Assembly (NCBI GenBank): GCA_023245355.1
Contig: JAHFKN010000004.1
Location: 25,309 to 89,308, forward strand
Length of the DNA stretch: 64,000 bases
Source of the DNA: Candidatus Gottesmanbacteria bacterium
GTDB lineage: Bacteria > Patescibacteriota > Microgenomatia > UBA10105 > UBA927
Direction of reading: 5' to 3'
Part shown: positions 327 to 56,315 of the stretch, piece after piece
Layout: every line of letters begins with the position of its first letter
Position numbering within the stretch: the stretch's first letter is position 1
Notes under the pieces: generated by a model
What the model was told of the DNA's origin: nothing
Databases searched by the model: none
The model's input: only the letters and a program-made list of their open reading frames with translations
Made by a program: the position numbers and the translations under genes

Positions 327-334
327 CGGTACGG

Positions 335-1996: not shown

Positions 1997-2513
1997 CTCT
2001 TGCAGGCACGCCTGCCACCATGACGCTGTCTGTCACATGCTTCGTGACAACAGCACCGGCGCCGACTACGCTTCTTTTGCCGATTACAACTCCGGGCAAA
2101 ATGATCGCTCCGGTGCCGATATAGGACCCCCGCTTCAGTACGACCTTGTCTTCATGCGTGGGATATATATTCTGCAGCGGATGATCGTTGTAGCCTACAT
2201 TTATATGCGTAACGATGGTTACTCTGCCGGAAAGCGTTACTTCGTCGGCAAGCTCTATGCCGCCGCGAACGTCCAGACTGACTTCATCACCCAAAAAGCA
2301 TTTGTTACCGATCGTCAGCCTGCTGAACCCATAATGGTGCAAATTGGTAAACCGAATATCCATAATCACCGTATCTTTTCCTACCGTTGCTCCCGCCAGC
2401 CGGAGCAGGAACACCCGCACGGGAGGCAACGACACATGAATGAGCCAGGCATACAGGCCGTACCACACAAACTTTACTGCTTTGGAAAATCCGATCGTCC
2501 GTAATGCATTCAT
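1980..2513 (-). CDS. Hexapeptide-repeat (left-handed beta-helix) acetyltransferase, WbbJ/WcaF-like
   Basis: Repeated [LIV]G-x4 hexapeptides (GTGAIILPGVVIGKRSVVGAGAVV) and an N-terminal hydrophobic helix. Confidence 0.75.
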   Translation of the reverse strand: MNALRTIGFSKAVKFVWYGLYAWLIHVSLPPVRVFLLRLAGATVGKDTVIMDIRFTNLHHYGFSRLTIGNKCFLGDEVSLDVRGGIELADEVTLSGRVTIVTHINVGYNDHPLQNIYPTHEDKVVLKRGSYIGTGAIILPGVVIGKRSVVGAGAVVTKHVTDSVMVAGVPARVIKRI

Positions 2514-2522
2514 ACTGGATAC

Positions 2523-3239: not shown

Positions 3240-3288
3240 TGCCGCTTGATCATATCAGGCGCGGTTATTGTGATGCAATAAACGGCCG

Positions 3289-4818: not shown

Positions 4819-4843
4819 GGGATAATGACACCATTGTGACACA

Positions 4844-6451: not shown

Positions 6452-6458
6452 AACACGT

Positions 6459-9490: not shown

Positions 9491-11474
9491 CAAGCACGGT
9501 TCCTATACTTATTCCCGCGCCAATGACAAAAATTTTCGGATTGTACCGGTATATAACCGTATGATTTCCGGGTGAAACAATAAGTGTTCGGAATACATTG
9601 TCTGTCTTGTTGATACTTGTTTTTTTGCCGTCTATATACGCTTCCCACCCCGGATACCATACTTCAGAGCTTTCCAGTGTCGTTGCACAGGAATTGTTAA
9701 CCGACAAATCTATCCTGTTCGGGCGATACGAAACAACACGTACGGTTCCGCAGGCAGAACCGAGGAAAAATCTGGGCAATACGCCGGTATTTTCATAAAG
9801 CCGGTACTCAGATGTTTTTGACTCCATGATTTTCCGGTACCGTGCAACGCCAGCAAACGGATCGTACGCGACGGGCACTTGTATATATTTTATATTCAGC
9901 CTGTCTATACCTGCTGCAGCCTCGGGGGTAAGATACGGAATCTGTATATCATGGGATAGCACTGCCTGCTCACCGGACTCCCCTGCAATATGCGCCACAT
10001 ACTCAAAATACGGCCGCAAAATCGACGGATCGTAGCCGGTCGCTGAATATACCCCGTAGGAAAGGCCGCTGTCAAAATCCATCGCATCCCGCTGCGGGAG
10101 CCATGCGCCGTAATTCTGCAACACGCGGTACGGCTCTGTATCAGCCTGCAGCAATGCAATGAATTCTTTGTCATGCCGCGCTGCCGGCACCGGTTTAAGT
10201 TCTATAAAACCGCGTCCGAACATGACCATCTCACCCGCTACCAATCCTGCCAGGATAAACGGCACCACACGGATTCTGCTGAGCATCCTGATGAAGTATG
10301 CTGCCCCGAATCCGGAAAGCACGGATAATCCGAACACGGCAAGAATAAGATGCCGGGGAGGGATCCGCAGATATTTGTACATGGGAATCCATTTCCACAG
10401 ATAATATTGCAGATCTACTCCCGCATTCGGCCCCAGAGAAATCCAAAATCCCAACACAGTAACACAGATGATGCCGATTCCGACGGCTTGAAGCTGCCGT
10501 TTACCGCTTCGAAACAGACTGAATGCACCTGTCCCGGCCAATATGAGACCGACGACACCGACAAACATGCTGTGCTCGGTAAAATTCGGCGGCGGACCGG
10601 CATAGGTCGTCACATTCCCGAAGATAAACGGATTGAGGAGCTGCCAAAAACTCCGCCACTCGAGCGATCCGTATGCGTGCCATGTATACGGAAATCCGTA
10701 CGTCCTGATACTCATCCTAAAAAACTCCTGCACGGGAAGCACTTGGATAGCGGCAAGCATGATGCCGGTTGTTCCCGCAGCCAAAGCGGAAAATACCGGC
10801 TGCAATCGTTTTTGTTCTATGCACACGGCCGCAATGACTATCCCAACGACGATAACACTCATCATTGCCATCGTCTGATACCCGGCAAACAGCTGGAGGG
10901 AAAGCATGATAGCGGCCAAAGCAAACGATTTTTTATACGCCGGCCCTGTTGCGTATCCTAGCCGGTAAAACGACCACACCACCCATGGAATCCAGGAGGC
11001 CGCGGCAATAACGTCTGCGTGTCCCGCATAGGTTCTCGCCATAAAAAATCCTGACAATCCGAATACTGCCCCGCTTATCCACGCTCCCGTGTTATATGCA
11101 TATTTCGATGTTGTTAGTTGTGCTTTGTTGTCAGGTACCTGTCGGCTAAGCACATACATGCCAATCATTGCCCATACAACATGCAGGTACAGATGCCATC
11201 CGTAGGCCGCGGGGAGCGGCAGCACGGAAAATATCCATGTCGGCACATACCAGATATTGACGATCGGATTTGCGATAAACGGCTCCCCGCCGAACATGTA
11301 CGGATTCCACCAGGGAAATACTCCGTGAGAAACGCTCTGATTAAAAAATTCACGGAAAAAGAAATAACTCCGGTGAATATCATCACCGAAAATCATCTGA
11401 CCTTCCGGAGGAAACAATGCCCTGCCGAATACGGCTACCCCTAACAATACATACCCTAATACAGCGGGAATCAT
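9414..11474 (-). CDS. YfhO-family GT-C membrane protein
   Basis: 686 aa. N-terminal ALFPPEGQMIFGDDIHRSYFFF...FPWWNPYMFGGEPF matches the YfhO signature (FP.WNPY.F.G.P). Multi-TM. Confidence 0.6.
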   Translation of the reverse strand: MIPAVLGYVLLGVAVFGRALFPPEGQMIFGDDIHRSYFFFREFFNQSVSHGVFPWWNPYMFGGEPFIANPIVNIWYVPTWIFSVLPLPAAYGWHLYLHVVWAMIGMYVLSRQVPDNKAQLTTSKYAYNTGAWISGAVFGLSGFFMARTYAGHADVIAAASWIPWVVWSFYRLGYATGPAYKKSFALAAIMLSLQLFAGYQTMAMMSVIVVGIVIAAVCIEQKRLQPVFSALAAGTTGIMLAAIQVLPVQEFFRMSIRTYGFPYTWHAYGSLEWRSFWQLLNPFIFGNVTTYAGPPPNFTEHSMFVGVVGLILAGTGAFSLFRSGKRQLQAVGIGIICVTVLGFWISLGPNAGVDLQYYLWKWIPMYKYLRIPPRHLILAVFGLSVLSGFGAAYFIRMLSRIRVVPFILAGLVAGEMVMFGRGFIELKPVPAARHDKEFIALLQADTEPYRVLQNYGAWLPQRDAMDFDSGLSYGVYSATGYDPSILRPYFEYVAHIAGESGEQAVLSHDIQIPYLTPEAAAGIDRLNIKYIQVPVAYDPFAGVARYRKIMESKTSEYRLYENTGVLPRFFLGSACGTVRVVSYRPNRIDLSVNNSCATTLESSEVWYPGWEAYIDGKKTSINKTDNVFRTLIVSPGNHTVIYRYNPKIFVIGAGISIGTVLVMLCFVFCGPLPGRMKRLTAHPVRK

Positions 11475-13120
11475 GGCGAAAAATAGACAGTTACACGGTT
11501 ATTTTTATATGCCTGCCTAAGAAACGGATACGAGAGAGAAAGGTCATTTACCCTGCCGTCTTCCCGTTCCTGCGGCCCGAAAAATACGTACCGGGCACCC
11601 ATACTCTGTATCCAGCGGTGCGCCTCATCCGCGTTCATTCTCCCGGAAAAAAACTCCCGGACTTTTTCTTTTTTCACTTCAAATGCAACGGTGTTGTCAT
11701 GTCCTGCATACACGGTGTTGCCGCTCACAACCGGAATATAATTTCCGGCTGTAGTCTCCGACAATACTACACCCATGCCCTTTGTCTGCTCCCCGATAAA
11801 CTGCATCGCAGATATAAAATCTTTGAGCGGATACATCACATAGCTTCCGGTAGGAACCAACGGGAGTGTAGCCCGGATTTTATGATCCACGAAATCCCGC
11901 TGCCAGAGATACGAAGAATACATATGGAATACTCCTGTTCCTATGAGAATACACGGAACGAGCATTGCCACAATCCGGAACGGACGGATCCGGTACAGGC
12001 GAAACAGCGCATACATCCCCAGTGCCCCCAGCGGCACGTGCGGAATCATTTCTGAAAACCGGAGCGGACTCTGTTGCGGCACGAATGCGAATATCCCAAG
12101 CAGGGCTGCCCATGCGATAACCCAGGAAACCGCGGGAAACATCAGTGTCTCAAAAGACATGAGTGCTACGACAAGTCCGATAAGCCCGAGCGGAAGCGTA
12201 GGCCCCATCGCCCGGAAATACTCCGCATAATCAAACGGGAGCGGACGGATCATATCGACCTCAGCCAGCCGCTTCCAGGGGTAGATACCGGTCATCAGCA
12301 TGAGATAAAACAGCGAGGCTGCGCTCACCATGCCGATAATAACGTACGGCACGAAAAGCCGGCGGCGATTTCTGCCTGACAGCAGAAAATATACGGCCAT
12401 CACGGTATATACAAACAGCAGGCCCGGAGGAAATATCATGCCCAATACGAGCGCGGACAGCCCGAGCATCATGATGAGTGCCGCGTTGGTAACTACGGAA
12501 ACGGAGGTAACCGCCAGGATGAGAAAAACAATAAGCGCCTGCCCGGCCAAAAGATGCGGAATAAACGTTATCCGCTGCAGGCTGTCCATAACGGACCACC
12601 ATGCCATATAGCCGCCGAAACGCCACACCCCGCCAACTTCTACAAGTTTCGGCCAAGAGCTTGCCGTCACAGCCAGGACGAACGCCGTAAGCCCCGTCAT
12701 GTATGCTGATGCCCGTCCTATACCCGCAAATGATTTCATGGAAAACGCAGCGATGAGCCCGAGCAGTGTGATAGCAAGAACGATTCTGGCCACATGATAC
12801 ACATCCCCTGCCCGATGATACGGAACCCGTGCAAACCTTCCGGCCCGCCCCATGAACAGATACATTTCATGGATAAGCGACCCGGCGTGAGGCTCCGACG
12901 TGTATTTTTCCGTAACTGTTATCCGCCCTTCCAGCCCTTCCCGGATACGGGACAGATAAAAATTGTAATCAGTCGGAAAATTATGCACGAGTTCGAATTG
13001 ACGGTCTGTCTGAAGCATGTCTTTACGCGACAATTCATAGATTGAGGGTGAAAGTGAACTTAAGACGAATCCTGCAATCAGAAGCGGAATAATTACCTTT
13101 TTTATATCCATAATCCCCAT
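11471..13120 (-). CDS. Polytopic membrane protein, paralog family A-related (GT-C-like)
   Basis: 549 aa. The NFPTDYNFYLSRIREG loop motif is shared with 4844 and 14500. 4-nt overlap with the downstream YfhO gene. Confidence 0.55.
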   Translation of the reverse strand: MGIMDIKKVIIPLLIAGFVLSSLSPSIYELSRKDMLQTDRQFELVHNFPTDYNFYLSRIREGLEGRITVTEKYTSEPHAGSLIHEMYLFMGRAGRFARVPYHRAGDVYHVARIVLAITLLGLIAAFSMKSFAGIGRASAYMTGLTAFVLAVTASSWPKLVEVGGVWRFGGYMAWWSVMDSLQRITFIPHLLAGQALIVFLILAVTSVSVVTNAALIMMLGLSALVLGMIFPPGLLFVYTVMAVYFLLSGRNRRRLFVPYVIIGMVSAASLFYLMLMTGIYPWKRLAEVDMIRPLPFDYAEYFRAMGPTLPLGLIGLVVALMSFETLMFPAVSWVIAWAALLGIFAFVPQQSPLRFSEMIPHVPLGALGMYALFRLYRIRPFRIVAMLVPCILIGTGVFHMYSSYLWQRDFVDHKIRATLPLVPTGSYVMYPLKDFISAMQFIGEQTKGMGVVLSETTAGNYIPVVSGNTVYAGHDNTVAFEVKKEKVREFFSGRMNADEAHRWIQSMGARYVFFGPQEREDGRVNDLSLSYPFLRQAYKNNRVTVYFSP

Positions 13121-13137
13121 TCTAACCTAAACCCGGG

Positions 13138-13167
13138 TTGACTTTACACCCACCTACTTGGGATAAT
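13138..13167 (+). promoter_or_regulatory. Sigma70-like promoter candidate: TTGACT, 18-nt spacer, GATAAT
   Basis: Seen in the 54-nt divergent intergenic region. The -10 element ends 7 nt before the ATG at 13175. Confidence 0.3.
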
Positions 13168-13174
13168 CGTACCA

Positions 13175-13729
13175 ATGACGCAGCCACTTTCTGATTCGGC
13201 GATTGACCCACATCTGCGCGACAAAGTCTATGAACAGGACTACTCGCCGAAACCGGCAATTGCCGGGATAAAAATTCTGAAAATAAAAAACTTCGTAGGA
13301 GAAAACGGCGACTTTTCCGAACTGTTACGGATGAATGAATCAGGTGAAGCCGAACAGCTAGTGGGATTCCGTGTACGGCAGATTAACCGGAGCAAGCAAT
13401 ACAACAAAGCGATCAAGGCATGGCATCTTCACTATAACCAGGATGAAGTCTGGTATGTCCCCCCGGATGAACATCTGCTTCTCGGCCTGTGGGATGTCCG
13501 TGAAGGGAGCGAAACGAAAGGGATCACCCAAAAAATCCCGCTTGGCGGCGGAAATTCCATTGCAGTGTATATTCCCAGAGGTGTCGCGCACGGAGCAGCG
13601 AATTTTTCCGGCAAAAAAGCAAATGTATATTACTTTGTGAACAACCAGTTCAACCCGGACAATCCGGATGAACACCGTCTCCCCTGGGACGCTGCCGGAA
13701 AAGAGTTTTGGGAAGCCCCGAAAGAATAA
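13175..13729 (+). CDS. RmlC-like cupin sugar-nucleotide epimerase/isomerase (dTDP-4-dehydrorhamnose 3,5-epimerase family)
   Basis: 184 aa. The AVYIPRGVAHGAANF motif resembles the RmlC/FdtA 'xIPxGxAHGF' strand. Cupin size. Confidence 0.55.
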   Translation: MTQPLSDSAIDPHLRDKVYEQDYSPKPAIAGIKILKIKNFVGENGDFSELLRMNESGEAEQLVGFRVRQINRSKQYNKAIKAWHLHYNQDEVWYVPPDEHLLLGLWDVREGSETKGITQKIPLGGGNSIAVYIPRGVAHGAANFSGKKANVYYFVNNQFNPDNPDEHRLPWDAAGKEFWEAPKE

Positions 13730-13791
13730 TCCGGATATCTTCATAACCGTTTCAGTGGAATATCAGAGAACAATTCTCTATACTCACTCCT

Positions 13792-25100: not shown

Positions 25101-28100
25101 GTATGCCAAGCGGCCTGGATGTTATCCGTTTTCCGTCTTCATAAAACATCGTGTGTGTTCCTAATATTTCTCCAAACCGCGATATAAAATCGTCTGCTTC
25201 AGTATCCGTCACTGACTCATCGACGAATATGGCATACTTATCCCCTGCTACGCGGATGAGGCCGAAGCGGTTTGCCGCGTCATTCATGGCAATTCTTGTT
25301 TCGAAAAACACCGCAGCCATGTCTTTCAATAAATAATCTCCCAATAATTTTTGAGTTCTGGAATCGGCGAGGACATGATTTGCCCCGAACAGATTTTCAA
25401 TATCAATAACTTTGACAATCTTACGGTTTACATGCGACAGCAACGGCCAGGATTGGGACGTCCAAACAAGTTGAGGAGCATCTCCGTAACTGTTTACCTC
25501 ATCAATCCAGTCAGTCCGCACCTGGCTCCGGATGCTTAAAGGAAACATTTCACGGCTCAGTGGCCGGAGTTGTTTTTGATGTAATGCATCAAGAAAATAC
25601 TCATTATATAGATCTACCAATTCCGGGGCGCCGATAAGTATCTGATTCATTTGTGAGGCTAACTCTATGTCTCCCATACGGTTGATAAACTGTAAGAACG
25701 CGCGGAAAATCGCTGCCTTTACTATCTCCCGCTGCTGAACCCGCTGGAAGCTGTTCTCCTGTGCACTATACGCTTGCAACACCGGCGTCCTGCTGCGCTG
25801 TTGCAACTCTACAAACACATCACGGAAATCGTTGAGAAGCTGTTGGTGTGTCCAGGTGCCGTTCCCTGACACTGATGCAAACCGTTTGCGCCGGCCGCTC
25901 GGGGTGACCAGATCCATCACCGCAAATACCGTCCCGTCAGGCACTTTCACCGTATCAGCTGAGTATTCCGATATGGAATCGAACTCTGCTTCAGATACGA
26001 GTACAGGAGGGACATACGAAACAAGCGCTGTTCCGTTCATCGCCTGTATCATAGGACCGACATACGGCAGACGCAGTAATCCCAAACGCAAAAAGCGCTG
26101 GAGCCATATCGGAATATACCGGTTATTCGTCACCATAAACACGACACCCAAAAGCGACTCGTCCTGCGATCCGTTGATCGCCCGGACAGCCGTATTGAAT
26201 GCATCCGGCTCAATCCACTGGTTATCAGGAGTGATCATCGGTAATGTTTGCGGCTGGATTCTCCGCAACTCAACCGGGAAATTTTGCGCATCACTGCTTT
26301 CCGGATACGTAGGTACCATCGGCGAGATGATGGAAGAATCGTTTTTGAAATCCATATGAAGCGCTTCCAGTGTTTCCGCATATAAACGCGCAACCCCGCT
26401 GAAACGAAGCGTTCCGTCAACCGGTATCTGTAACACCGGATCCTCAACCTGAGTATTCATACCGGGAACATTCATCGTTCCCTGCTCCAAAATACCGTTG
26501 CTTAACGCAGCAAACATCCGGAATGCCAACACGCCCTCTACCACCAAATGATCGCCTGTTACTATGATGCCGCCGGTACCCGTCCGGGCAACCCGGAGCC
26601 ATGCATTCTGACTCTCCGTATATCTTCCGACATACCGCTCCGGATCAGCCGGCTGCTCGTCAATAACGACCATCGCCTCCCCCGGATCCGCTGCTATTTC
26701 ACCCTGTGCAATCAATCCGGCAATTTCATCCGCCGTAAATTCCCGGTCCAAAGGAACCCTGATACGCCGGAATCGTCCGTCTGCTTGTGCAATCGCAATC
26801 ACCGCTTCATCTTGGATAAGCTCCCTGGGATCATAGGCGGTCCTGTTTTTTGCTTCATTCACCCGTACAAACAGAGGCTGATTGTGTGCTCTGGCAGCAT
26901 CACTTCGGGCAAATTGCAGGAAGTTGACTATCAGTTGCGGCGCAAAGTCATCCTTTACCCGCATGTTTTTATATTCCTTGTGCAGCACGATCGCCCGTTC
27001 CCGCCGGGTCAGACTTCCCACCATATATTTCTCCCACTGCGTCATTTCGGAAACAGCCCGCGAATCGACGGCAAATTGCGGAGAAGAAATCCGCCTGATA
27101 CCCACAAGCAGCCAGTATAATCCGCGTGCCAGAGCCCGACGCATAGAGGAAGCGCGGAGAATCGGCAGATCGTTCATTGCTGCTGTAAGCTGCGTCGGTG
27201 TCGGCAATCCCATGCGCACCAACGACCGGTCATCGGTGCCGATTGCTACCCGTAGGCTTTCGCCGAACGGATACTGCGGCTGCATACGGATAAACAATCC
27301 TCTCACGCCCTCCTGTACTCCGCGCAGCTGATTGAGCATGCCCGCACGCCGGGCGACAGCCGGCCACCGTTCAATCGGCTCATGGGTAAATAATGCTACT
27401 GCTTCTTCACGGGACATAAACCGTCGGACACTAAACACCGCTTCTACCCCTGATGTGACCATGGCGTCGTACTGACGGTATTGCTGCGGGGTTCCCATGT
27501 GAGCCGCCAAAAGCGCATCAATTTCACCCGCATACTCTTCCCCGTATTCACGGATGACTTTTGCACGGATGACCCCCGCTTCAACGGGATAACTGTCATA
27601 TTGTCCCCCGTCTGCCTGACGTTTCGTGAGCGTTCGAATAATAAATGAAGAATCTTTCGCGAACGAATTATCCCGTTGGGCGGCATATGCAAGTATTTCC
27701 GTGCTTACGATATACCGGTATGTGCGGGCATCAAGATACGCAGCTAATCCTTCCCGGCGCTCTTCCTGGGTATTCCATGACCGCAATAATTCCGTTAACC
27801 GGTCGGTTGCCGGAGCAGAACTTCCGTCATTCCTGATGATGTCATACACCGCATGCTGCATCTCATGAATAACCATTTGTCTGCCGTACGCTTCCCCGTA
27901 CCGGCGGTTTATAAATATAACCGAATCGTTAAATGCTGGTATCAATGTTTTCCCAGGATGCAACCCGCTTGCGCCTTCATACGAAACCCCCTGTGCTACG
28001 ATACCGTCGTGCATGAGCTCGTGAGCATTCAACGCCGCTTTGCTAAAATCTGCAGCATCCAGTTCTATGATCACAAACGGGCCGCGGACGACCATGCTGG

Positions 28101-31100
28101 TTTCTGCTCCCACATCCGTACCGAATACTGCTTTTATGAACGTTTGCCCGTCCGGATACGCTGAGGCGGCGCGTCCGATAATCTGTTGCTGCGTGCGGTA
28201 CCGCTCCACAATTCTAACCATTTCATCCCGCACCGGCCGCGTAAATCCGTACGTTATCTGATATTGATCATAGACGGCCCGGATTGCCTCGTCGTCTGCC
28301 TGCGGATTTGCGATAAGAAGCTCGCGGACTTCGGCTTCCAATCTGGCCAATCCGACTCGGTAATAGGCATACTTTTTATCAAACGCCGCCTTGGTCATCC
28401 GGCGTTCCCAGGAATTCGGCGGGGTTTGCCGCATGGTGGTTATCCACTCGCTCACGTCAAACGTTTCGCCCCTTCGTATGGGAACGGCGGATATACTCTC
28501 CCGGAACCTGGTAAATAGATATGGTTTTTGCAGGAATTCAGGAATTAATTGCTGAAAGCCCCATACCGACCGCGTTACCGGTTTCTCCGGATCCATAGAC
28601 TCGAGTATTACTGCTGCCGGCGGCTCCATTCCCTCTTCTATAATCGGTGTCACACTGTCGATTACTCGCCCGACCGGACAATCATTTGCACCCTGAGGAT
28701 CTTGTGCAAATACCAACGGAATCAAACGCAATGCAGACCCTCCGCATGCCTGTTGTCGCACCCGTTTCGCCGCGGCTCTGACAAACTGTTTTGCCGGCCG
28801 GGTCACCGGTGTATATGCATTCCGAAGCGCCCTGCCGCTGCGCACTGCTGCAAGCGCCAGCTGCGGATCAATCCACGGACGGCTTTGCTGACGGAATTGC
28901 GGAGATTGCGGCGCAGGTTCTGAAGCAGGAATCAGTTTCCCTATTCCCTGCGGAATAAGCACCTGCATGGTCTCATCAAACTGCCACAACCCGCGCCACA
29001 TAACACCCAAGGAAGCTGTTACTCTTGTAAACCAACGTTTGTCCGTCTGCTGTCCCTCAAGACGGAGCATGGCGCGCGCGAGCGCAATGTTTGCACGCAA
29101 AGACCGCTGAATCGCACCGGGATTACCGGCTGCAACTTCGGATGATTTGAGCGCACGTCCTGCGAAAATCCGCTGCACGAACCGGAACGGCCGCTGCACG
29201 GCGGTATATGCAACTCCGACAAACACCGAACTCAAACTTAGATTCGTGCCTGGCACAGACCCCTGTTGCCGCGCCGCCGCCAATGCGCCCCCCTCTTCCT
29301 GTGTAAGTAATATGGCGATTTGTGATCGTCCACGGCCCTCTGCAATCGCGCCGTATTTGGCGACAAACTGATCAAACGTAAGCGTTTCACCGCGGATAAT
29401 TCCGTCTCCGGTCACTTTTCCGTTTGCAAATTTATAGTTTGCGTCATATACCGTAAATGTCTGTATTCCTGCTTCATTTGTATCAATATACGCTATGTGT
29501 CCGGGATTTTTTGATCCTTTGTTGTATACGACGAAAAAATGTCCGGGTCCGTATGTTTGCAAATCTTGTTGCGACTGTACGCGTAATACGTAATATTCAC
29601 CCCGAAATACCAATCCGTCGGGATCATTGGATAATTCATCACCGGCCATAGATTTCGCCACTTCACCTCCGATTGCTGAAATCGGAATATTGAAATCAAC
29701 GAGCCCGCTTTCTACGAGAAGATTTGCAAACGCCACACATTGCACCTCCTGATCCGGCCAAACATTGCGCTGCGAGGTGAACAGGTCATCCAGGAAATCG
29801 TATGCATCATAGTCCGCCCGGTCGAGCTCACGTGCAAGCGTCTCAAACCCGCGGTCAACCAATCCTGTTTTTAATGCTTCACTCGGCGTTACTGTATCTC
29901 TGTCAGGGCTACTTTGCCATTCGTTGAGGATATCTGCAAATACGTTGGACATAATAGCCGCCTGCGTTTTGGCAGCCGGGCCCAATATCGTCCGCGCACC
30001 TGCTGCTGGTAGCCGCGGCAAAGCGGTAGGAACCTGTGGCAGCGTTTCAGCAACCGGTGGCTGCGCCTCAATAACAGGCGGCTGTACTTCTTCCGGTTGA
30101 CTCACGGCGGCACTTTGTGCTGGTACCGACAGCGGTTTAGTTCCGGCAGGAGACAACACCTGTACTCCTTTAAACTTAGCAAGGAACGTATCGACCGGCA
30201 TGAGGTACGTGCCCGTCGCCTCATCTTTTTCTATACCGGCATACACACCCCACGTAGACGGATTGATAAATGAAGTCATCAGGCCGTCTGCCAGCCGGAC
30301 GAATACTTCGCCGTCACGCTCAACAAACCCCAGATACACCAAACTGTGTTCGGTAACTTTCGATGAATTAAGGGAAATGATTGTTCCATGGGCAACACCC
30401 TTGTAGGCTGCTTCCTGCTGTCCCATCATGACCCGAAGTAATGACTCCCTCAGATCAGCAGACGGCACATACAGAATAACTTTTCCGTCCTTGATCTCGT
30501 ATTGTATGGACGGGTGCTTGCTCACCATTTCCAGGAATACCGACTGGGTAACTTCGTACCGCGTCTTGGACTGCGAAATGACGGGGATTGTTTCGTCACT
30601 TAACTGATAGCCCATATTCTTAAGAATTGAGGCAAATTCCGTCTTCCCTTTCCCCTCCTGAACCCCGAGATTCAGAAGCGCCAGCGCCTGTTCTGACTTT
30701 GTTCCGCCGCCGTGGTTTAAATATTTCTCCACGATTGCAGGATCCATCGTCAGACTGTCGCGGGACTGAGCTTCGGGAGACAATAATTCCGCATACAACA
30801 ACGGGTCGATAACGACAGGCACGGTTCCCGTAGTTGCAGTCTCTGCATCGATAAGCGATATTGCAGCCGTAAGCGTATGGATATAACAGGTAAATCCGCC
30901 TGCCTGCGGCAGCGCGATAACGTATCCTGAACTCTTGCTTCCCGGCAAGCCGCTTTGGATTTGGGAAAGCGGAATTGCAGCGGTTTGCGCACCGCGTTCT
31001 TCCGTCGTTGCCGACGGGAATACGTCATCATGGAGAAGTGACCCGCTTGGCTGACCGTCGGACGGATATGTCACAACCCGGGCAATCACCGTCCCCTGTT

Positions 31101-34100
31101 CATTCGTGATATCGACAACTTGTGCGCCTGCCAACACAAGCCGCGCGTTGATACCGTTTACATTTCCTTTTCCGAGCGTTGCCTCCAGACTCTCATACAA
31201 CTTACGCACATCATCAACCATTCGGTTTTGTTGTGCCGTACTAGTACCATACGTCCGCTGTGACTTGACATAAGTTACAAGCGCCTGCGTCACATCCGTT
31301 TCATACCCGAGCGAAGACACTGATACGGGGACAGCTGCGGACGGACCACTCCCGCTATTACTCACGGGAGGCAAGACCAGTATCTCACTGGGCTGTTCCT
31401 GTTGATCAGTGATGACATTGCTGCTTTGCTGCCTGCTCGCAAGATAATCCTGAATCCGTTCTGAATACCCCTTCATGGCAGGAACCTGAGACAGAAGGAG
31501 TGCTAGGGCCAACACACCGCTGACCATTTTAATCGTTACCTGCGCGAATACTTTTTCCAGCGATTCAAATACGCGCCAACCGACTGACTGCAATCCGAAC
31601 AATATGGCAAGAACGGCTGCAATCATTCCCGATATCTGCGGCAGCCGCGTCTGCACCAGTGATCCGTACTGGGGAACCATCATGGCAATCGCCGCAAGGA
31701 ACCCAAGTCCTGCCGCTATCTCAACTGCTATCAGTATGTTATTTCTGGTAAATAATCCGCTGATCTGATCACGAAGCGGTGCTATCTGCTTCCGCGGACC
31801 TGCCGGAACAAGGACGGACGGCAATAAATCTCCGCGCTGCCCCCGTGTTACTGCCGGCGTCTGACCGCGGTCTTTTGCTCCGTATATCGAACCAAGCGCG
31901 GTAATCCATTTCCTCGTATTGTTCCTGATATTTCCTTTGTAAAGGGAAGTATCAATCCCTGTTAATACCGCCGTAACGACGTCGTTGATCTCTTGGGTTT
32001 TGACCTTCTCGCCTCTTGCCAGCCGTTCTACTACTGCGCGGGCCTGTGCATTCCCGGCTATGGCGCCGACAATGATATTGGCAGCGCTGTCGCCGGTAAT
32101 GCGCGTAATCAGTCCGAATGTCCGGGCATCTGCTGTCTCCCGGACCATCGAAGTTACCAACGCTGCCCGCACGGATTCAATAAGCGGAGACACCGGGGCT
32201 CCGGAAAGATGCCGCACTACATTCTGCTGGATAAGCGCCAAATCAGAATAATTATGAACACGGATCTGATCTTCTATCGCAGTATCGACTGCAGACTGGA
32301 CGAATGTTACCCATGCTTCATGCTGACCGACGTATTCCAGCAAACGGTCCTGAATATACACGGCAAATAGAGTCTCCCAATGGTCTTGCGAGATTGCCGC
32401 CGGACGGATCGGATATGCAGTACTTACCTCACGCACAACTCTGTCACGGAATTCCGCGTCATTGCGGTCAATGACACGGCCTTCCGCAACCCACGTGCGC
32501 AAAGCTGCGCGTACCTGCGTACGGATTTCCGCTCCGCGGATTCCCATAAGGTCAGCAAACCCCTTTGTCTCTTCCGGCGTTACGCGGAATAATTCATAAG
32601 CAGCGATGAGTCTGCTCCTTAATGCGGCAATGTCTTCTGTTCTCGCCGGAGATCCGGTATCAAGGGTAGGACTGCGTAATAATTCGGTCAGCAATGCATA
32701 CTCTTCTTCATGTCCGTATGTTGCCGTCCTGTTTGCACCCCTGCCTCTGCTGATAGTTCCGATCCTGTTTTCGATAGCAGTACGGAGAACAATCTGTTCC
32801 TTTCTCAGTGCTTCAAGCTGAGAAGCGAAAATCACATTTGATTCCTCAGTCATCTCCGTACTTTGTAATTCTTCAGGAATTATCTGCGGCTCGGGCGTCT
32901 GCCGTTGTGCCGCCTGCCTGATAATTTCAGGATCTACTCCTACGGTTCTGGCCAATATTGCCGTTAACCGGGTCGCGCGCTCATTGCGTTTTGCCCGTGT
33001 GACCAACCGCTTCATTGTGTCTGACTCCATTACACGGATAAGACGCGGGGTGGCAATGGCGATATGAATTTGCTTATCCTGCGATGTGAATTCCTCCTGA
33101 TGCGATTCTATATAGGCAAGCGCTGCTCCTCCCTGAAGCTTCACTCCCTCAATAGTCGTAATTTGCAGCTGCTGGTCAAGCTGGAATCCGAGCGTCCGTA
33201 TAACAAATAACGCCATTGTCGGATTGGTAACACCAAGAATGCGTACCGGCCTGGTATACCACGGCATGCGTTGAATTTTTTCTATCGCACGGACCAAATC
33301 AACAGTTCCTAAATTGACCGACTGGACATCATATATCGCATTTTGGCTTGCGCTAAACGGCACGAAATGCATCCACATGGGTATCAAAGGAATAATCGAT
33401 TGGGAACTTTTGATACGGCGCGGAATGAATGATATGAGTGATTCAATAAACCTTGGTACACGATCATATAACCGTGATATAACGTCACTTACACGGGATC
33501 GCTCGAAAGCCACTGATCCGGTCCAGTCATAATTAGACCCGGTCATACGTGCATGGATATTTGTGTCTGTTTGGAACAACTCTTCTTCCGTTAGCGACGC
33601 TAACGCTTCGCGATATCTATCTTCAGAAAAGTTCTCGTCCGTTATTCCAAACCGCTCAGCCACTCCGGGCGGCAGCGATTCGATCAGGCGGAAATTTACC
33701 ATCTGCGGCGTTTCATAAAAATCACGCTTACTGTTGTATGGGATACCGAACTCATCGAGAATCGAGCGCGCTGCGTCGCGATTGGCTTTCGTATTTTCAA
33801 GACGGATTATATTCAGGTTCAGCCCGGAAGCGATGCCTGCTCGACGGGCTAAATCAGTCTCCGTACGGGACATTTCGAGCCGAAGAATACGTAATAATTC
33901 TTCCACAACCCGGCTCCTGTCATTTCCTGTTGTAAATATCCGCCCATGTTGTTCAATAAAGTACGTAACTTCATTCAGGGTAGAAACGACAGCATTCGTT
34001 GAAAGATTCCAGAGACGGTTCTCCGAAATCAACCGGAGCCCTGTGGTAAGCAGTACAATCGGGTTTATTTTATCGGTATCCACACCTTCTTTTTCTATAA

Positions 34101-37100
34101 GGGATTCAAGCACCTGAGTGTCTATTCCGAATCGCAGGCTAAGCATCGGAATAACATCTTTGGATTGTAATTTGCTTGTCGCGGTAAACCGTGCAACATC
34201 GGACCGGCTACGGGGAACCGACAGTCCGTTGTTTCCTGATCCCCCATCAACGACAACCGGCACTTCATTGACTGCCGCTTCTTCCTCCCGGATAAGGCTT
34301 CTTCCGTCACTCAACAGTAGTTGCTCAGCCGACTGCACCGGGCTCAGCAGTATGGGATATGAAGTCTTCCCCGTTACCTCAAAAATAGTCCTCACATCAG
34401 ATGCCAATTCCAGCATCCGTTCCTGTGCAGCCATGGGATTTTGCAGGTCGGCCACCAACATGGCAACCGCGTCAGGAAGGGTTATTTCTGGGGGTATGGG
34501 TTCTTCTTCCCTTGGGGGAATACCTGGCGCCGGTGCCCCACCCGCAGGCTGCTCATTCTTTCCGCCCGGCTCCCCCGGTTTTAGAAGCCACAAATAATGA
34601 GCAATATCAGTGATCAATTGTGCGAAATTATCCTCGGAAATACCATACGTTTGTGTGATATGAGCAAGCGTTTCATCGGTCGGTTGCCTGTATTGGACAT
34701 CATTGGGGAATAATTGTTGGAGAAGTTCTGTGGTAATTTGCGCGGCATGGAGTCCACGGAATATCTGCTCTGTTTCTTCTGCACTGCGTACCCATCCGCT
34801 GTTTGCTTCCTCAAGAATTTCCAGCGTCAGCTGCTCCTGCCGTACAACAGCAGGAATCTGAGCAGTCGGATTGACTGTCATGGATATCAGTGTCCGCATA
34901 TATATTGTCAAAAGCGCCCTCACTGCGTCGGGGTTTGCCCGCACCTGAGTAAACTGCCGTTGAATTGCCGCTTGCGCCTCATCCCACCGGGGATTTGTGT
35001 CCAGTTCTTCCTGTAGATCAGTAAGACGCGGCAATACCAACTCCCCGGTAGCTCCCGATATATCGGCAAATACCGCATCGAGCATTGCGTTATCTTTCGT
35101 TGCGTCCAGCCCGAACCGCGCCGCCATTTCATCCATAAGATCCCGGATAGTGCTTTGCGGTGCAGGCGCAGGAGCTTCCAAACTTGCATAAATTTCCGAT
35201 ACCCATGACTCAAGTTCTGTGGTGTTGATTCCTGTTTCCATGATTCCGCCGTCAATAAGCAGCATTCTGATCCTGTCACGGAGCATCGTTTCCCTGTGTT
35301 GTCCGCGTGCTTCTGCAACAAGCCGTTCATCAGACGCTACCCGTGATAACAGGTCATAAAATTCATCAAGTGCAGCGCGGTCCGCAATGACATGCCGTAT
35401 ATACCCGGTAAACCGCTCAGCTTCGAAGCCTACTGTCTCTTCGAGTAACGGGCTCAGGGATTCACGCACAACTCCGATTCCCTGTGCCTCTGTCGTCCAT
35501 GATTCCTCACCGAGCGCACGGACTACGGCAGTAATATCAGTAAGGAGTGCTTGTGCCCGGTACGGATTTCGCATAACCGCACGGATAATATGCGGAGTAA
35601 GCGGAGCAAGTTCCCGTGCATCGGCAAATAATCCCAATAATGTCTCCCACGCAACTTGAACGTGCGGGTCACGCCAGGCTTCCAATACACCCACCGGCGG
35701 CATAACACCTACCAGCATGTCTGTCACGATCGGTGCGATAAGCTGCCGCCACCCATCGGGAATACCGCGCGTTATGGCAAATGTAATACTTCTTCGTCTC
35801 TCATTCATGGCACGTGCTCCGCGTGAGCGCTTCTGCTGCTGTGCCCTGGATAAAGCCAACGCTTCCCTACCCGCCCGTTGACGGATGTTTGTCGCGATAA
35901 ACTCTCTGGGAGCTGCCGGAGGTACACCCTCATCAAACGTCATACCCCACTTTGTCAGTTGGTCCAGGAAATCATTGAGCCGCTCCTCGACAGACTGCAG
36001 CACGTCGTACCTGCCCATTTGGGATCCCGTCCTTCTCGAATACCGTCGCTCAGGCGGAGCAGTTCGGTTATACGCATCAATACCGTTTTCCAGCAATTCC
36101 AACGTACTCTGACCGCCCGTCGTTGTCTGATCTACCGCTGCCGTCCTCTGATTCAGCTGCCCTAAATATGCAACCATCGGATCAAACACCTGCCGGAGAA
36201 TCGGCTCGCTTAATCTGGTATACGTCTCACCCGCTTCGGGACCGGTGTTATCTACACCGGCAATCATATGCTCCATAAGCTGATGGATAGTGCCGACTTT
36301 TACGTTTACCTTGCTGTTCCATGCAGCCAAAAACTTATCCGGACTGATATGAAAGGTGGTAAACCGGTTTAATATAATACCCGTCACGGCATCGGCAAGT
36401 ACCGGTGTACTATCTTCATTGATCCACGTTGTTCTTGCTTCTGCAATCGTCCGCAGTATAAAGTTTTGCAGATCCTGAATTTCACGGCGTAGCTGCCCCG
36501 CCTCCTCAAGGTTCTTATATGTCTCGGTCTCTTCAATTAAACGGATAAATATATCCTCGGGTACAAATATCGGCAATCCCGGATTACGCAATTCCGCTTC
36601 ATACGCCGCGCGCAATATGTCTGCTGCCCTATCCGCTGGGCTCGCTATGATGGCTCTTCGTGCCGATACAAGGGCCCGTAATTGATCCCTGATTTCTTCT
36701 GACTTCGCCTTCGGGAACTCAGTTAACAGCCATGCATCATAGGCCGCACGGGTTTCCTGAACTTTTTGACGAACCTCAGCGGTAACAGTACGGAGTTCGG
36801 AAACATTCTGATTATCTACAGCGTCATACCACTGTTGCGGTACGTCCTGCAGCGTCTTGTGCATATACGATTCCTGGTCGCGTATGATACGAATTGACGC
36901 CTCAATATATTGAATCCGCAATTTACGCTCGAATGATCCAGCCGCCCTCTTCCGTTGTTCTTCCGGCAATATGGTGATTTTCTGTACATCTGCATCAAAC
37001 GCGCTGATAAGCTTTTCTGTCTCATCAATGTTATCTTCTGCGCCAAGCGACAATCCCTGATATCGGCTCCGCAATTTAGAGAGAATCTTATTCCCTGCCT

Positions 37101-40100
37101 GAGTAACTTTTTCCTGCAACTCCGCCCCGTAATGCCCATACTCGCCGCGGGCGATTGCGTCGGCAATCTGCTGCAACCGTGCAGTATCACGGCTCAGCCG
37201 GGCATATACTTCCATATCTGCCACAGTGGACAACTCGTCAAAAAACGCCGTTGCCGCTTCAAATTTTTCCATTGACGATGTATCTGCCCCGGGAACGAGC
37301 GCCTTGAGATCAAACACCGGCTGATCCAACACACTGAAATCTCCGTTCCCGATATTTTCCATAAGACGCTGAGTAATCTGTATGTTCCCCTGCATGTCTG
37401 CTTGTGCAGCATCTGTCAGTGTTTCCGCTTCTGACCGCATGAACTCATCCAATGCTATCAGTGCGTTATACCGGTCCAATCTCCTTTTATAAATCGCGTA
37501 GTCATTTCCTTTACCCATGCCGCTAAACCACGCTTCCGAAAATACCGTTTCTCCCCCAAGCGCAACTCCTGCCGGCTTCTCATCAAATACGCGTTTTGCC
37601 GTCTGTATATACAACGCGTGATACCCCGAGATAGCTGCATGGTCCCGCGGGGAATATTCTTCCGGAGAATAAAACCAGGCGTCCGCATTCTGGTAATATC
37701 CTGAAACTTCCTCAGACATCCACGCTTTAAATGCACCTTGCCCGAATTGACTGTCAAATAGGGTACCGAATGGCGGCACCATTGAGGATCCACCCCGTAG
37801 CAAATAGGTGTACCCTGTGTCTGCTGTAGTTGCCAGACTGTCCAAAATCGCCCGCTCCTCAACACCTGCCTTACGAAGCAAATTAACGGCCTCTAACACA
37901 CGGGCAACACCTGTTCCGTATGCTATGAATTGAGCATCCGGTACGACCAGCTGAGCCAAACCCGACGTAAATGCTTCAATGTACGTTTGTTCCTGCGATT
38001 TATTAATGCTCAGATTTTGCACCTGACGTTCATGAATCATTTCATGAGCCAATGTGTTTACAAGCATTTCAGTGTTATTAAATTGACTTGTCAGCACGAA
38101 ATGACCGCTCAGTTGCTTTGATTGGAAGCCAACCACGTCAGCGGCATCAGCGGTGTCGTATACGATCCCAAGCTTTGCGTCGAGCACGGTAAACGGCACT
38201 GCATACCGTCCGGACCCGAATGCGAACCGGTGCCCCGTCTTGTCTTCAACGGTCTGATTAAGATAATTATGCACGGCAATATTGAGATCAAAATAATTGC
38301 TGAGCGTACCGAACGAAGAAAGGATATCCTGATAACTCAGGCGCATACTTGCAGCCGCAAGATATAATTCATCATCCGTTACTTCCGTAAGCGCTCTGTC
38401 GTCGCGATATACTCCCCCGTTTACCCGTGATTCTATTGACTGCAACAGGGCTGCCTGTAAATTCGTCAGATTAGACAAATCCAAATGACCGCCATCACGG
38501 GTGTTTTTCAGCCGTTGCTTGGCAATACTCGTTTTGTACAGGGTAACAAGACCCTCAACGGTGCGCTTGTTTTCGGCTGCATCCCCGTACATACGGGATA
38601 TATACTCATCAGCAACTTCCCTGAGATTAATTGTCACGCCTAACAGGTGCGCGACTTTAGTCTCCATGTCTTTCTGTATCAGACCGGCACTCCCTATCTC
38701 GGTATTCAGGGTGGTAAATTGGGAAATTTCCGTTTCGGTAAAATCAAATCCGAGCCTGTCATATTCACTCTTCAAACTGCGTAACGCCGTCGCAGTAAGC
38801 ACGCTGTTTTTGTCATACCCGTTCGCACGGATAAAATCAGAAATATGATTGGTAAATTGTGCGTATCGTCCGATAAACCGCCGCACCTCATAATAATCAG
38901 TAGCCGCCTTCCCGAGTTTCACAGACGCCACACTCTTCTCTAACGTGGTGTTCTGGCGTGAGCTTCTGCCCGCTGTTATCCTGTCTATCACGGACTGTAT
39001 TGCCGGGGGAAACTGTTTCTTTTCCGTCGTATCCCCCGCCGGAGCCACAGCTGGTGCTGCCTTTTTAAGTTCTTCTATCTTCTTTTCTGCCTCTAAAATC
39101 TCTTGCTCATACTCCTTGAGCGGGTCATTACCGAGAATTGCATCTGCCGCCAGATTCCACAGATTACGAAGCACGCTTGAGGATTGTCCGGTAATTTCCG
39201 CTTTTATCGCCGTGAGTGTCCGCTCGGCAGATGCAGCATCGGTCATCGTACGTATCAGGGACAAATCCGCTTTGCGCTGCGCGCGGATGAACGCGAACAC
39301 TTCATTTGCCTGCTTTGCGCTCTTACCTGCTAATTCTGCACGCACCGCGTTCATAGCTAACGCCCGTGCAGTCCGCGCATTTTGCCTCGCTCTGTCTGCA
39401 AGAGCTACTTCATCAGGAGCGTCAAAAATGTCAGCTTCTTTGGTATGCACAAGATATCGGACTATATTAAACAGAATCGTATTTACGGGCTTCCCTGCAT
39501 CCTCATGGCCGGATCCCGGCCTATGATTATCTTCATGCTGCTGTATAGCTGACATAATGTCATTGAGATACCCGATAGCAGAATCTGTTTGCCCCACACT
39601 CCTGGCCTGATGGGCCTTTGCAAATAGCGGCATGATGACGTTTTCCACAAAATCAGAACAGTCAGAACAAAGCAGCGGATTGATTTGTGCACTGCTGAGC
39701 ATCTGAGCTTCGACATTTGCACCGAATAAATTCGCGACGAGAGCACCGACATCGGCGCCACCCGAAACTCCGGCCGGTGCTGCCGTATATACCGTAGTGT
39801 AGATAAATTGCGATTCCGACACGGTAACCGGCGTTTTTACCCCCTCAAGATCAATATTCCACGTTGACCTGTTTATACCGTTTCCTCTGACACGTCCTTT
39901 TATCTCAAGCACCGTGCCGTTTGCATTCGTATATTGAGCGATAACGTCAATACCAAGTCCCTGCGCGACACCTGCCGGCAATACTACGCCTGTCAGGGTA
40001 TATCCCGTGAGATCAACTTCAGGCGTTGTTGTCACCGGTGCAGAAGGAACGGGGACCTGGACAATAAGTGTTCCTGCTTCAAATGCTAACCGCTGCTCTT

Positions 40101-55023: not shown

Positions 55024-55024
55024 G

Positions 55025-55095
55025 TGGACCCGAGGGGAATCGAACCCCTTTTTGAACTATGCCATAGTTCCGTACTACCGGTATACGACGGGCCC
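55025..55095 (-). tRNA. tRNA-Ala (anticodon GGC)
   Basis: Hand-folded. Acceptor GGGCCCG/CGGGTCC with the G3:U70 Ala identity pair, anticodon stem GAACT/AGTTC, loop ATGGCAT, T-arm AGGGG-TTCGATT-CCCCT. No encoded CCA. Confidence 0.8.
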
Positions 55096-55102
55096 TGACA
55101 AG

Positions 55103-55175
55103 TGGACCTGACCGGAGTCGAACCGGTGATCTCCGCAATGCGAATGCGGCGCTCTACCAACTAAGCTACAGGCCC
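55103..55175 (-). tRNA. tRNA-Ala (anticodon CGC)
   Basis: Hand-folded. GGGCCTG acceptor with G3:U70, D-arm GCTTAGTTGGTAGAGC, anticodon stem CCGCA/TGCGG, loop TTCGCAT, T-arm CCGGTTCGACTCCGG. 7 nt from the neighbouring tRNA. Confidence 0.85.
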
Positions 55176-55229: not shown

Positions 55230-56315
55230 CTATTTCAAAAACGAAGTTGGATTGACAGGGGTGCCGTTTTTCCGGACTTCGAAATGCAGATGCGTGCCGG
55301 TTGACCGGCCGGTCGAACCCATTTTGCCGATTACCTGGCCCCGGCTCACCGTGTCCCCCGCCTTCACATACACTTCTGTCATATGAGCGTAGAGCGTTGA
55401 CAATCCGCCGCCGTTATCGATGATTGCGTGCCTGCCATAGCCGTAATTTAAATACTGAACCGATATCACTGTTCCGTCCCCGGCAGCTGTAACCGGCGGC
55501 TGACTGGGATTGGCGATATCAAATGCCATGTGATACCACACGGGATATTGCGTGATGACGCCCACAGTCGGCCAGGAAAACTGCCCGCTTCCTCCTGCCG
55601 AAAGCGGCGCTGCTGCAAACTGCCGCGGAGCGATAGGGGCTGCTTCCGGCATAACGCCGTCAGGCACGACGAGTGTCTGTCCGACGGACAGAGCAAACGT
55701 ATCGAGATCCGCAAAATCATTAAACGGAAAGTTTACGATTTTTTGCGCTTCCGTTTTATACTTCTTGGCGATCGAATACACAGTCTCCCCTTCCCGGACT
55801 TTATGCACCATACCGGTAACAGGAGGAATCTTCAGACTTTGCCCTATAGTCAAACTATCTCTTTTAAGATCATTTGCCCACTTAATACTATCAACTGATA
55901 CGCCGAATTTTTGCGCGACGGTTGATAAGGTATCACCGTTTTGTATCTGGTATGTTATGATTTGATCACGTGGTTTTTCTGACACCTGCGTCTGCACGCC
56001 GTATTCAGATAAATCCAGACTCGTGACAACTGCTGACGGCGGTGTAAAGTCAGCAAGCGCCTGATTCTGCGCCCCGGGATACGCGGTTGCCAAAATGGGC
56101 GCCGCAATAATTGCAGCAAGCACCAATACACTTACGGAAAAATGCAGGAACGGACGCTGATACCCCCCTCTTCTTGCCATGAGGATATCAACCAGCACGT
56201 CTTTATTGGTTTCAAACCAGGTGCCGAACCGCCGGAGTTTACGGGAAAGGTAATGATACCAACCCTTCTGCCACAAGCGGAGATCATCCCTGAGTAATTG
56301 CATTCGTTTTCTCAT
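55230..56315 (-). CDS. LysM-domain M23-family metallopeptidase (peptidoglycan endopeptidase), membrane anchored
   Basis: 361 aa. N-terminal TM helix, two LysM-like segments (GDTLSTVAQKFGVSVDSI; GETVYSIAKKYKTEAQKI), and the M23 catalytic signature HMAFD...GSTGRSTGTHLHFEV. Confidence 0.8.
   Translation of the reverse strand: MRKRMQLLRDDLRLWQKGWYHYLSRKLRRFGTWFETNKDVLVDILMARRGGYQRPFLHFSVSVLVLAAIIAAPILATAYPGAQNQALADFTPPSAVVTSLDLSEYGVQTQVSEKPRDQIITYQIQNGDTLSTVAQKFGVSVDSIKWANDLKRDSLTIGQSLKIPPVTGMVHKVREGETVYSIAKKYKTEAQKIVNFPFNDFADLDTFALSVGQTLVVPDGVMPEAAPIAPRQFAAAPLSAGGSGQFSWPTVGVITQYPVWYHMAFDIANPSQPPVTAAGDGTVISVQYLNYGYGRHAIIDNGGGLSTLYAHMTEVYVKAGDTVSRGQVIGKMGSTGRSTGTHLHFEVRKNGTPVNPTSFLK

Follow-up and report, generated by a model that had tools for sequence, protein, structure and literature searches.

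The giant gene and its lineage

The window, the whole 64,000-nucleotide stretch of Candidatus Gottesmanbacteria DNA that was analysed, carries a giant open reading frame on the minus strand whose product holds four HExxH motifs (Table 1). Residues are numbered from the first TTG of this frame; the orthologue P0001, however, starts only at aa ~65, and this comparison puts the true start probably close to aa 50-65. At its N-terminus the protein carries a signal anchor (aa 64-82); a PT-rich linker and a Cys-rich region are also present, and hydrophobic hairpins are conserved at aa ~3945-3985 and 7635-7715. The stretch at aa 3945-3985 is hairpin-like, with an ambiguous number of hydrophobic segments. 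Near the giant gene, the scanned reading frames encode M23/LysM peptidase, Rho, DUF2298, PIG-L, NPCBM, PMT_2 and YfhO-like proteins.

Comparison with the orthologue L007, which is 84% identical, gives a dN/dS of 0.13 over 5,573 codons, and the L007 reading frame stays open over 20.6 kb; the giant gene is therefore real. The L007 locus stops at the position of giant aa 8806, just before aa 8873. Its variable region contains an additional HExxH cassette ('RIIYIDDHYNFPHELVHVLQHQ...EFEAYL'), so HExxH modules recur within the giant-protein lineage. A distant, collinear relative of the gene is represented in part by P0010. Two scans of genome contigs found no relatives, a Pfam scan of the giant protein returned 0 matches above threshold, and the protein is an orphan. 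Neither internal repeats nor extra copies of the two modules described below (B and C) were found in it. A P0002 match spanning the junction of a concatenated query turned out to be an artefact, and the repeat reading was rejected.

Table 1. Features of the giant gene and its HExxH-bearing regions, in positions of the window
Feature	Residues (aa)	Position (nt)	Strand	Description
Giant ORF	10,844 aa	22105..54639	(-)	Carries all four HExxH motifs
HEDNHRPGSGH	5035-5045	39505..39537	(-)	Metzincin spacing HExxHxxGxxH; conserved in relatives
Module B	5381-5690	37570..38499	(-)	Block conserved in the giant-protein lineage; contains HEMIH
HEMIH	5532-5536	38032..38046	(-)	Proposed zinc motif of module B; conserved in relatives
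E5555	5555	37975..37977	(-)	Candidate third ligand of module B; HExxH-x18-E, 'YIEAFTSGLA'
Module C	~8750-9104	27328..28392	(-)	Zincin-like domain, ~340 aa, mostly helical
HELMH	8873-8877	28009..28023	(-)	Second HExxH inside module C; lineage-specific, probably non-catalytic
HEMQH	8925-8929	27853..27867	(-)	Proposed zinc-binding/catalytic motif of module C; invariant in 70/70
E8981	8981	27697..27699	(-)	Candidate third zinc ligand of module C; invariant in 70/70
Y9014	9014	27598..27600	(-)	GGxYDY loop; candidate catalytic helper of module C; invariant in 70/70

HExxH motifs of the giant protein

An earlier sequence-only reading of this DNA had described HEMIH at aa 5532, HELMH at aa 8873 and HEMQH at aa 8925. 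Translation of the frame agrees with all three sites and reproduces the quoted contexts LAHEMIHERQ, NAHELMHDG and VIHEMQHAVYD. That reading had overlooked a further HExxH, HEDNH at aa 5035 (nt 39523-39537). The chance expectation given at that time, about 0.3 motifs per protein, was too high: the composition-based value is 0.095, which is lower because His accounts for only 1.2% of the residues. Among 20,000 shuffles none contained four or more motifs, and the maximum was 3. Across the whole giant protein, Glu occupies the second position in 4/5 of the H-x3-H pairs, and no HDxxH, HQxxH or HxxEH was found.

The four motifs differ in standing. Two lie within conserved zincin-like modules that had no previous annotation, another is part of a loop that is conserved and resembles a metal site, and the last seems incidental. 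The original description of the motifs as zincin-like is supported for HEMQH 8925 and HEMIH 5532, each conserved together with a downstream Glu, but not for HELMH 8873, which is absent from 69/69 homologues.

Module C and its family

The His, Glu and His of HEMQH are invariant in 70/70 aligned module C sequences at ~22% mean identity, and the family consensus at this site reads HEEQHA. Strict conservation of HExxH, a criterion for the zincin-like superfamily, is therefore found among these homologues, each of which has exactly one aligned HExxH. The invariant E8981 lies in the motif (K)DEILAY, with 51 residues separating it from H8929, and W9092 is also invariant in the 55-sequence alignment A1. 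An AF2 model based on 55 sequences reaches a pLDDT of 89.7 and a pTM of 0.88. In element order only, the model runs strand-strand-helix-strand-[HExxH helix]-...-[Glu helix]. The first two strands (model residues 109-113 and 116-121) are directly followed by helix 123-137, and HExxH (186-190) sits inside helix 173-197, immediately after strand 168-172; an active-site helix that follows a strand, with a preceding backing helix, is present in this same sense of element order. E8981 is placed on helix 234-248 and Y9014 in the loop that connects helix 258-266 to helix 278-293.

Sequence conservation and model together suggest that module C is a zincin-like domain of an undescribed family. Mechanistically, H8925, H8929 and E8981 would hold a zinc ion, E8926 would act as the general base, and Y9014 would aid transition-state stabilisation, while the strand preceding the HExxH helix would bind the peptide substrate. 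The best structural neighbour of the modelled domain is 3cmn (Caur0242 from Chloroflexus aurantiacus; SCOP d.92.1.16), a member of DUF2342/Zincin_2 (PF10103); the predicted resemblance, with 11% identity in the structural alignment, is one of fold only. A sequence relationship is undetectable, as a PDB profile search gave no 3cmn match and 0/55 family members match PF10103 at E <= 0.01. We know of no demonstrated activity for DUF2342. Foldseek searches with the model against PDB and BFVD returned nothing at E < 1, and neither module C nor module B could be linked by sequence to an established peptidase family in profile searches of Pfam, NCBIfam and PDB, which gave no match or only sub-threshold ones.

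HELMH 8873 is part of this domain as well: it occupies the C-terminal end of model helix 123-137, ahead of the active-site strand. At the aligned stretch 0/69 homologues have an HExxH, and the columns read F/Y-L-E-gap-G; the motif is therefore probably incidental and non-catalytic. The spacing of 52 aa to HEMQH, which had been singled out earlier, thus reflects neither two protease sites nor a duplication, since both motifs share one domain and HELMH is peculiar to this lineage.

The database matches to module C number 74, about 69 of which cover ~325 aa. They come mainly from Patescibacteria, and the family is absent from Pfam and NCBIfam. At about 70 clusters, it is a candidate addition to Pfam or MEROPS. 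A word-indexed homologue search with aa 8750-9150 gave no match, and the same kind of search with the family alignment found at least one protein. PIT88301.1 and MBU1179651.1 are stand-alone homologues of the module. Most members are soluble, lack a signal peptide and have E/K-rich N-terminal extensions. A hydrophobic segment is missing in 59/69 of them, so the ancestral role of the family may be cytoplasmic, unrelated to secretion or attack. One family gene is located between pheS and pheT, and many follow a conserved coiled-coil ORF of 48-59 aa, suggesting a two-protein complex; no counterpart of this small partner was found inside the giant protein.

Module B

The block around HEMIH is shared with L007 (84% identity), P0001 (67%) and P0010 (27%). 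HEMIH itself is retained in P0001 and L007, and P0010 has HELTH. Gluzincins of the MA(E) clan are classically recognised by an HExxH with a Glu 18-20 residues further on. Module B shows the arrangement HEMIH-x18-E5555, within the distance of ~18-25 residues expected of a conserved gluzincin Glu, and this Glu is kept in the giant protein, P0001, L007 and P0010 ('TFVEAVTEGLA'). The layout resembles that of the short-spacing gluzincins (thermolysin M4, aminopeptidase M1; HExxH-x18-20-E), and the four sequences also share an 'xEAF/xEGL'-like context.

This likeness is confined to the motif and its surroundings, however, as module B has no significant MA-clan Pfam or PDB sequence match, the outcome of profile searches that the sequence-only reading had proposed as a check. 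A PDB profile search with the module was negative, a word-indexed homologue search with its alignment gave no match, and the matches to Hvo_1808_fam (E 0.005), SprT-like and WLM stayed below threshold. The AF2 model, built on 4 sequences, has a pLDDT of 40.4 and is unusable, so that module B is classed, by its sequence alone, as a lineage-restricted and putatively gluzincin-like module. The idea that modules B and C are paralogues was rejected: hhalign aligns only their HExxH, with a probability of 0.7%.

Interpretation and alternatives

On this evidence it is fairly probable that the giant gene encodes a membrane-anchored protein with two or more mutually unrelated metallohydrolase-like modules of the zincin type, whose metal binding and peptidase chemistry are predicted from sequence and model. 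Such modules would most likely cut the giant precursor into pieces, or act on envelope or host proteins. A wider proposal, which we put forward tentatively, is that module C represents a new Patescibacteria-wide metallopeptidase family (HExxH...E...Y, with a coiled-coil partner). In this lineage it would be joined with an unrelated gluzincin-like module in a mosaic protein of the envelope, ~10,800 aa long and built with exchangeable cassettes, where the modules would split the precursor into functional parts or act on surface proteins of the host cell in episymbiosis.

Several zincin-like DUFs are suspected of regulatory, chaperone-like or other non-peptidase roles, and a zincin-derived fold could likewise serve here for a structural metal, a non-peptide substrate, or a regulatory or chaperone-like function. 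This alternative, which we regard as unlikely but serious, draws on the uncharacterised state of 3cmn/DUF2342, on the soluble, signal-less and E/K-rich character of most family C members, and on their genomic settings between pheS and pheT or behind the coiled-coil ORF. Against it, the general-base Glu of HExxH and the Tyr are invariant in 70/70 sequences; a purely structural metal site is therefore disfavoured, as it would need neither. Chance occurrence of functionless motifs, in turn, is hardly credible. It would suit HELMH 8873, given its absence from the homologues, and the probability of one extra random motif across the 10,844 aa is ~0.09. Yet the Poisson probability of at least four motifs is ~3e-6, the 8925 motif is invariant across a 70-sequence family at ~22% identity, the 5532 motif is retained at 27% identity, and the 5035 motif keeps its third His in three relatives. 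For 8925 and 5532, both conserved among relatives, the chance reading was rejected.

A reading of the motifs as minimal zincins of the DUF4157/eCIS-core type, as suggested earlier, or of the SprT or WLM type, as on polymorphic toxins and contractile-injection effectors, appears quite improbable. The matches behind it are faint and at motif level: PF13699 (DUF4157) aligns with 25 residues around HEMQH only (aa ~8907-8931; E 0.19), SprT-like (PF10263) with only 17 residues around HEMIH (aa ~5521-5537; E 0.11-0.13), and WLM (PF08325) with one module B relative at E 0.06, below the gathering score. The HExxHxxQ context of module B and of the L007 cassette presumably also resembles the DUF4157 consensus. 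The scores, however, fall far under the cut-offs (12.4 vs 22 bits for PF13699, 12.6-12.8 vs 25.6 bits for PF10263), 0/55 family C members match PF13699, and module C measures ~340 aa rather than ~80. Furthermore, the ORFs scanned near the giant gene include no eCIS sheath, tube or baseplate families and hence no eCIS locus, and the modules are internal, without a C-terminal toxin layout. DUF4157/eCIS_core domains, which have been proposed to act in the loading, release or maturation of toxins (PMC8213781), are comparable in being small HExxH domains joined by long linkers to very long proteins. They are N-terminal, though, whereas the modules here sit at aa 5532 and 8925 of 10,844.

A parallel in concept to the favoured picture of a membrane-anchored giant with metallohydrolase-like modules comes from Omnitrophota, whose giant proteins have multiple transmembrane segments and embedded C39 and S8 peptidases, proposed to cleave the giants themselves into smaller polypeptides or else to act on other substrates (bioRxiv 10.1101/2023.11.21.568195). 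Both cases would place protease modules within giant proteins, putatively so in the present one. Unlike the protein described here, the Omnitrophota giants come from another phylum, use Cys and Ser peptidases rather than putative metallopeptidases, and contain many recognisable domains, compared with none in Pfam.

CPR/Patescibacteria genomes are small, typically ~1 Mb, and hold many unannotated genes. At 32.5 kb, the giant gene would take up ~3% of a genome of that typical size, and with no recognisable domain it represents a large block of unexplained biology, for which the two conserved zincin-like modules offer the first testable handles. If their role is to process the giant protein or to attack the envelopes of hosts, they would bear on episymbiont-host interaction; should they do neither, they would be a modest addition to an already very diverse zincin superfamily.

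The metal-site-like loop at residue 5035

The fourth motif, HEDNHRPGSGH, fits the metzincin consensus HExxHxxGxxH exactly, and its third His is kept in the relatives. In metzincins this consensus goes with a Met-turn below the metal site. The corresponding stretches read HEDNHKPGSGH in L007, HENNHLPNSGH in P0001 and HEYNHKPESRH in P0019, so that H5035, E5036, H5039 and H5045 are conserved in all three. In contrast to metzincins, two of the three relatives have N or E in place of the Gly, the inner residues are polar, and there is no Pfam match. The comparison points to a conserved three-His loop that resembles a metal site. A conserved Met ('AMNAVR') occurs about 50 aa after the motif, in a segment that is probably helical.

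HExxH motifs in the giant protein

Translation of the giant minus-strand ORF, numbered here from its first TTG, returns the three HExxH motifs of an earlier sequence-only reading at the same nucleotides and in the same contexts. That count was incomplete, since it overlooked a fourth motif, HEDNH at aa 5035. The protein is poor in histidine (132 residues, 1.2%), so its composition predicts merely 0.095 HExxH, and the earlier chance figure of 0.3 per protein was too high. None of 20,000 shuffles holds four or more motifs (Poisson P ~3e-6), Glu occupies position two in 4 of the 5 H-x3-H pairs, and the control patterns HDxxH, HQxxH, HxxEH and HExxxH have zero occurrences in the protein. The enrichment is real, and pure chance is excluded for all motifs save HELMH 8873; the probability of one additional chance HExxH in a protein of this size is ~0.09.

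Coordinates of the features discussed (window positions unless a locus is named)
Feature	Residues	Nucleotides	Strand	Remark
Giant ORF	10,844 aa	22105..54639	minus	uninterrupted; ORF call in window
Stretch before probable start	1-64	54478-54639	minus	first in-frame start is TTG at 54639
Signal anchor	64-82			N-terminus
HEDNH	5035	39523-39537	minus	fourth HExxH; translation of ORF
HEDNHRPGSGH	5035-5045	39505-39537	minus	fits HExxHxxGxxH
CSDC		39658-39669	minus	conserved CxxC ~40 aa upstream of HEDNHRPGSGH
HEMIH	5532	38032-38046	minus	translation of ORF
HELMH	8873	28009-28023	minus	translation of ORF
HEMQH	8925	27853-27867	minus	translation of ORF
Two tandem tRNA-Ala (anticodons GGC, CGC)		55024-55175	minus	directly upstream of giant ORF
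M23 peptidase with two LysM repeats		55230-56315	minus	adjoins tRNA-Ala pair
Membrane glycosyltransferase-like cluster		6459-11474; 58498-60708		two PMT_2, one YfhO-like, DUF2298 / Chlor_Arch_YYY; flanks giant
Small coiled-coil ORF upstream of family C gene		L001 5820-5999; L003 4811-4990; L006 4858-5004

Architecture and relatives of the giant protein

Pfam gives no match above threshold across the full length, and self-BLAST finds no internal repeats, an uncommon combination among giant bacterial proteins. In neither a 5.8-billion-protein collection nor the GTDB species-representative genomes was the window's own sequence found. The true start probably lies near aa 50-65 rather than at the first in-frame TTG: P0001, an orthologue, starts at giant aa ~65, and an alternative TTG at aa 50 would give a typical signal-anchor N-terminus. 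Residue numbers may therefore be shifted by about 50-64. Behind the anchor come a PT-rich linker and a Cys-rich stretch; hydrophobic segments are kept at aa ~3945-3985 and 7635-7715, with an ambiguous number of membrane passes.

The gene is real and under purifying selection, because the frame of L007 (JGI Ga0172375_10000139, a 110-kb metagenome contig), with a stretch 84% identical to the giant, stays open over 20.6 kb with zero stop codons, and dN/dS between the two is 0.13 (5,573 aligned codons). P0001 and P0002 (MCL4200413/4), both partial and encoded side by side in a MAG listed at NCBI as 'Patescibacteria group bacterium', share 40-55% identity with the giant. Non-alignable cassettes separate the conserved blocks (aa ~4080-4700, 6240-6490, 6780-7250), making the protein a mosaic in which the blocks stay and the cassettes are exchanged. 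In place of giant aa ~6240-6490, L007 carries a hypervariable region with an extra HExxH module (translated residues ~4230-4500), which reads 'RIIYIDDHYNFPHELVHVLQHQ...EFEAYLFEE' (motif part 'PHELVHVLQHQ...EFEAYL') and has no Pfam match. HExxH modules have thus been gained and lost within this protein lineage.

L008 (ENA BUCK21-1 scaffold_3, GC 43%) is a collinear distant relative of the giant gene, split into two ORFs and retaining module B (giant aa 5381-5690): immediately before P0010 (2,584 aa; 6001-13755), which carries this module, lies an ORF (17-5938; at least 1,973 aa) with a match to giant aa 1890-3144 (40% identity). The second ORF also bears a Metallophos domain and DUF7790.

Module C and its family

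With the concatenated motif regions of the giant as query, HMMER run in full against 1.84 billion cluster representatives gave 74 matches, ~69 of which align over ~325 residues (aa ~8774-9098) within module C (aa ~8750-9104). These family C proteins mostly have 370-530 aa, a few large ones carrying the domain in the middle or C-terminal half; the members with names, whose annotation is hypothetical protein, belong to Candidatus Magasanikbacteria or 'Patescibacteria group bacterium'. Pfam and NCBIfam models match 0 of 55 members, and a profile search of PDB sequences yields only coiled-coil noise. Every member has exactly one HExxH at the aligned position, commonly HEEQHA. H8925, E8926, H8929, E8981 (motif KDEILAY) and Y9014 (motif GGxYDY) are invariant in a 70-sequence alignment, in which W9092 is kept in 68/69 homologues; all six are invariant in a 55-sequence alignment.

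AlphaFold2 on the family alignment produces one confident domain (pLDDT 89.7, pTM 0.88; model residue = giant residue minus 8739). N-terminal helices precede a beta-hairpin (109-113, 116-121), helix 123-137, a loop, strand 168-172 and helix 173-197, which bears HEMQH at 186-190; later helices include 234-248, bearing E8981. In zincins, the N-terminal subdomain and 'glutamate helix' comprise a sheet, backing helix, edge strand and active-site helix, and the modelled order is the one expected of them. HELMH 8873 lies at the C-terminal end of model helix 123-137, in the same domain as HEMQH 8925, and its position holds an HExxH in 0/69 homologues (aligned columns F/Y, L, E, gap, G). The two motifs singled out earlier as 52 aa apart are thus one conserved site beside a lineage-specific motif, not tandem protease sites.

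Module B and the motif at aa 5035

Module B is kept in P0001 (67% over the block), L007 (84%) and P0010 (27% identity), its HExxH reading HEMIH, HEMIH and HELTH, respectively. In all relatives, 18 residues separate the second His from a shared Glu ('TYIEAFTSGLA' versus 'TFVEAVTEGLA'). Such a distance corresponds to the classical short spacing of gluzincins, and the module accordingly looks gluzincin-like. Profile scores are low for Hvo_1808_fam (E 0.005, 16 bits, cut-off 200) and WLM (E 0.06). A PDB profile search with module B is negative, AlphaFold2 on four sequences is unusable (pLDDT 40), and hhalign detects no kinship with module C (probability 0.7%).

HEDNHRPGSGH has metzincin spacing (HExxHxxGxxH) in the giant, but the Gly is not kept throughout the relatives. 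L007, P0001 (HENNHLPNSGH) and P0019 (HEYNHKPESRH) all retain H5035, E5036, H5039 and H5045, marking a conserved candidate metal site; among the 1.84 billion cluster representatives, HMMER found no homologues beyond the giant's lineage.

Predicted function

Modules C and B are probably metal-dependent hydrolase domains of the zincin type. In module C, invariance and the modelled element order point to H8925, H8929 and E8981 as putative ligands, with E8926 as possible general base and Y9014 as helper. E8981 is the candidate third zinc ligand of module C, and the conserved Glu is that of module B. The main rival, zincin-derived domains with a non-peptidase or regulatory role, seems rather unlikely. 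The earlier zincin-like suggestion is supported for HEMQH 8925, an invariant site, and HEMIH 5532, kept at 27% identity, but not for HELMH 8873; its DUF4157-like alternative is not supported by the membership tests. Nor is SprT membership (module B 12.6-12.8 bits, cut-off 25.6).

Within the giant, the modules might serve self-processing, a role suggested before for the C39 and S8 domains of giant Omnitrophota proteins (bioRxiv 10.1101/2023.11.21.568195), or might act on envelope or host proteins. An attack role is disfavoured by the lack of a hydrophobic segment in 59/69 family C members and by their varied gene contexts (beside a T4SS pilin, beside a TrwB-like ATPase, between pheS and pheT).

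Neither the chemistry nor the class of fold is new. What is new comprises an undescribed domain family, chiefly of Patescibacteria, a second, lineage-restricted module with gluzincin-like features, and the setting of both inside a 10.8-kaa protein without recognisable domain. The modules offer concrete handles for experiment, with nothing surprising in principle.

Gene neighbourhoods

Further neighbours of the giant gene encode Rho, a PIG-L deacetylase and an NPCBM protein; the glycosyltransferase-like flanks, which include the DUF2298 / Chlor_Arch_YYY membrane protein, suggest a cell-envelope glycosylation neighbourhood. Stand-alone family C genes often lie immediately after a homologous coiled-coil ORF of 48-59 aa ('...LL.EYR.RLEELKI...'), and locus L003 carries two family C paralogues in tandem.
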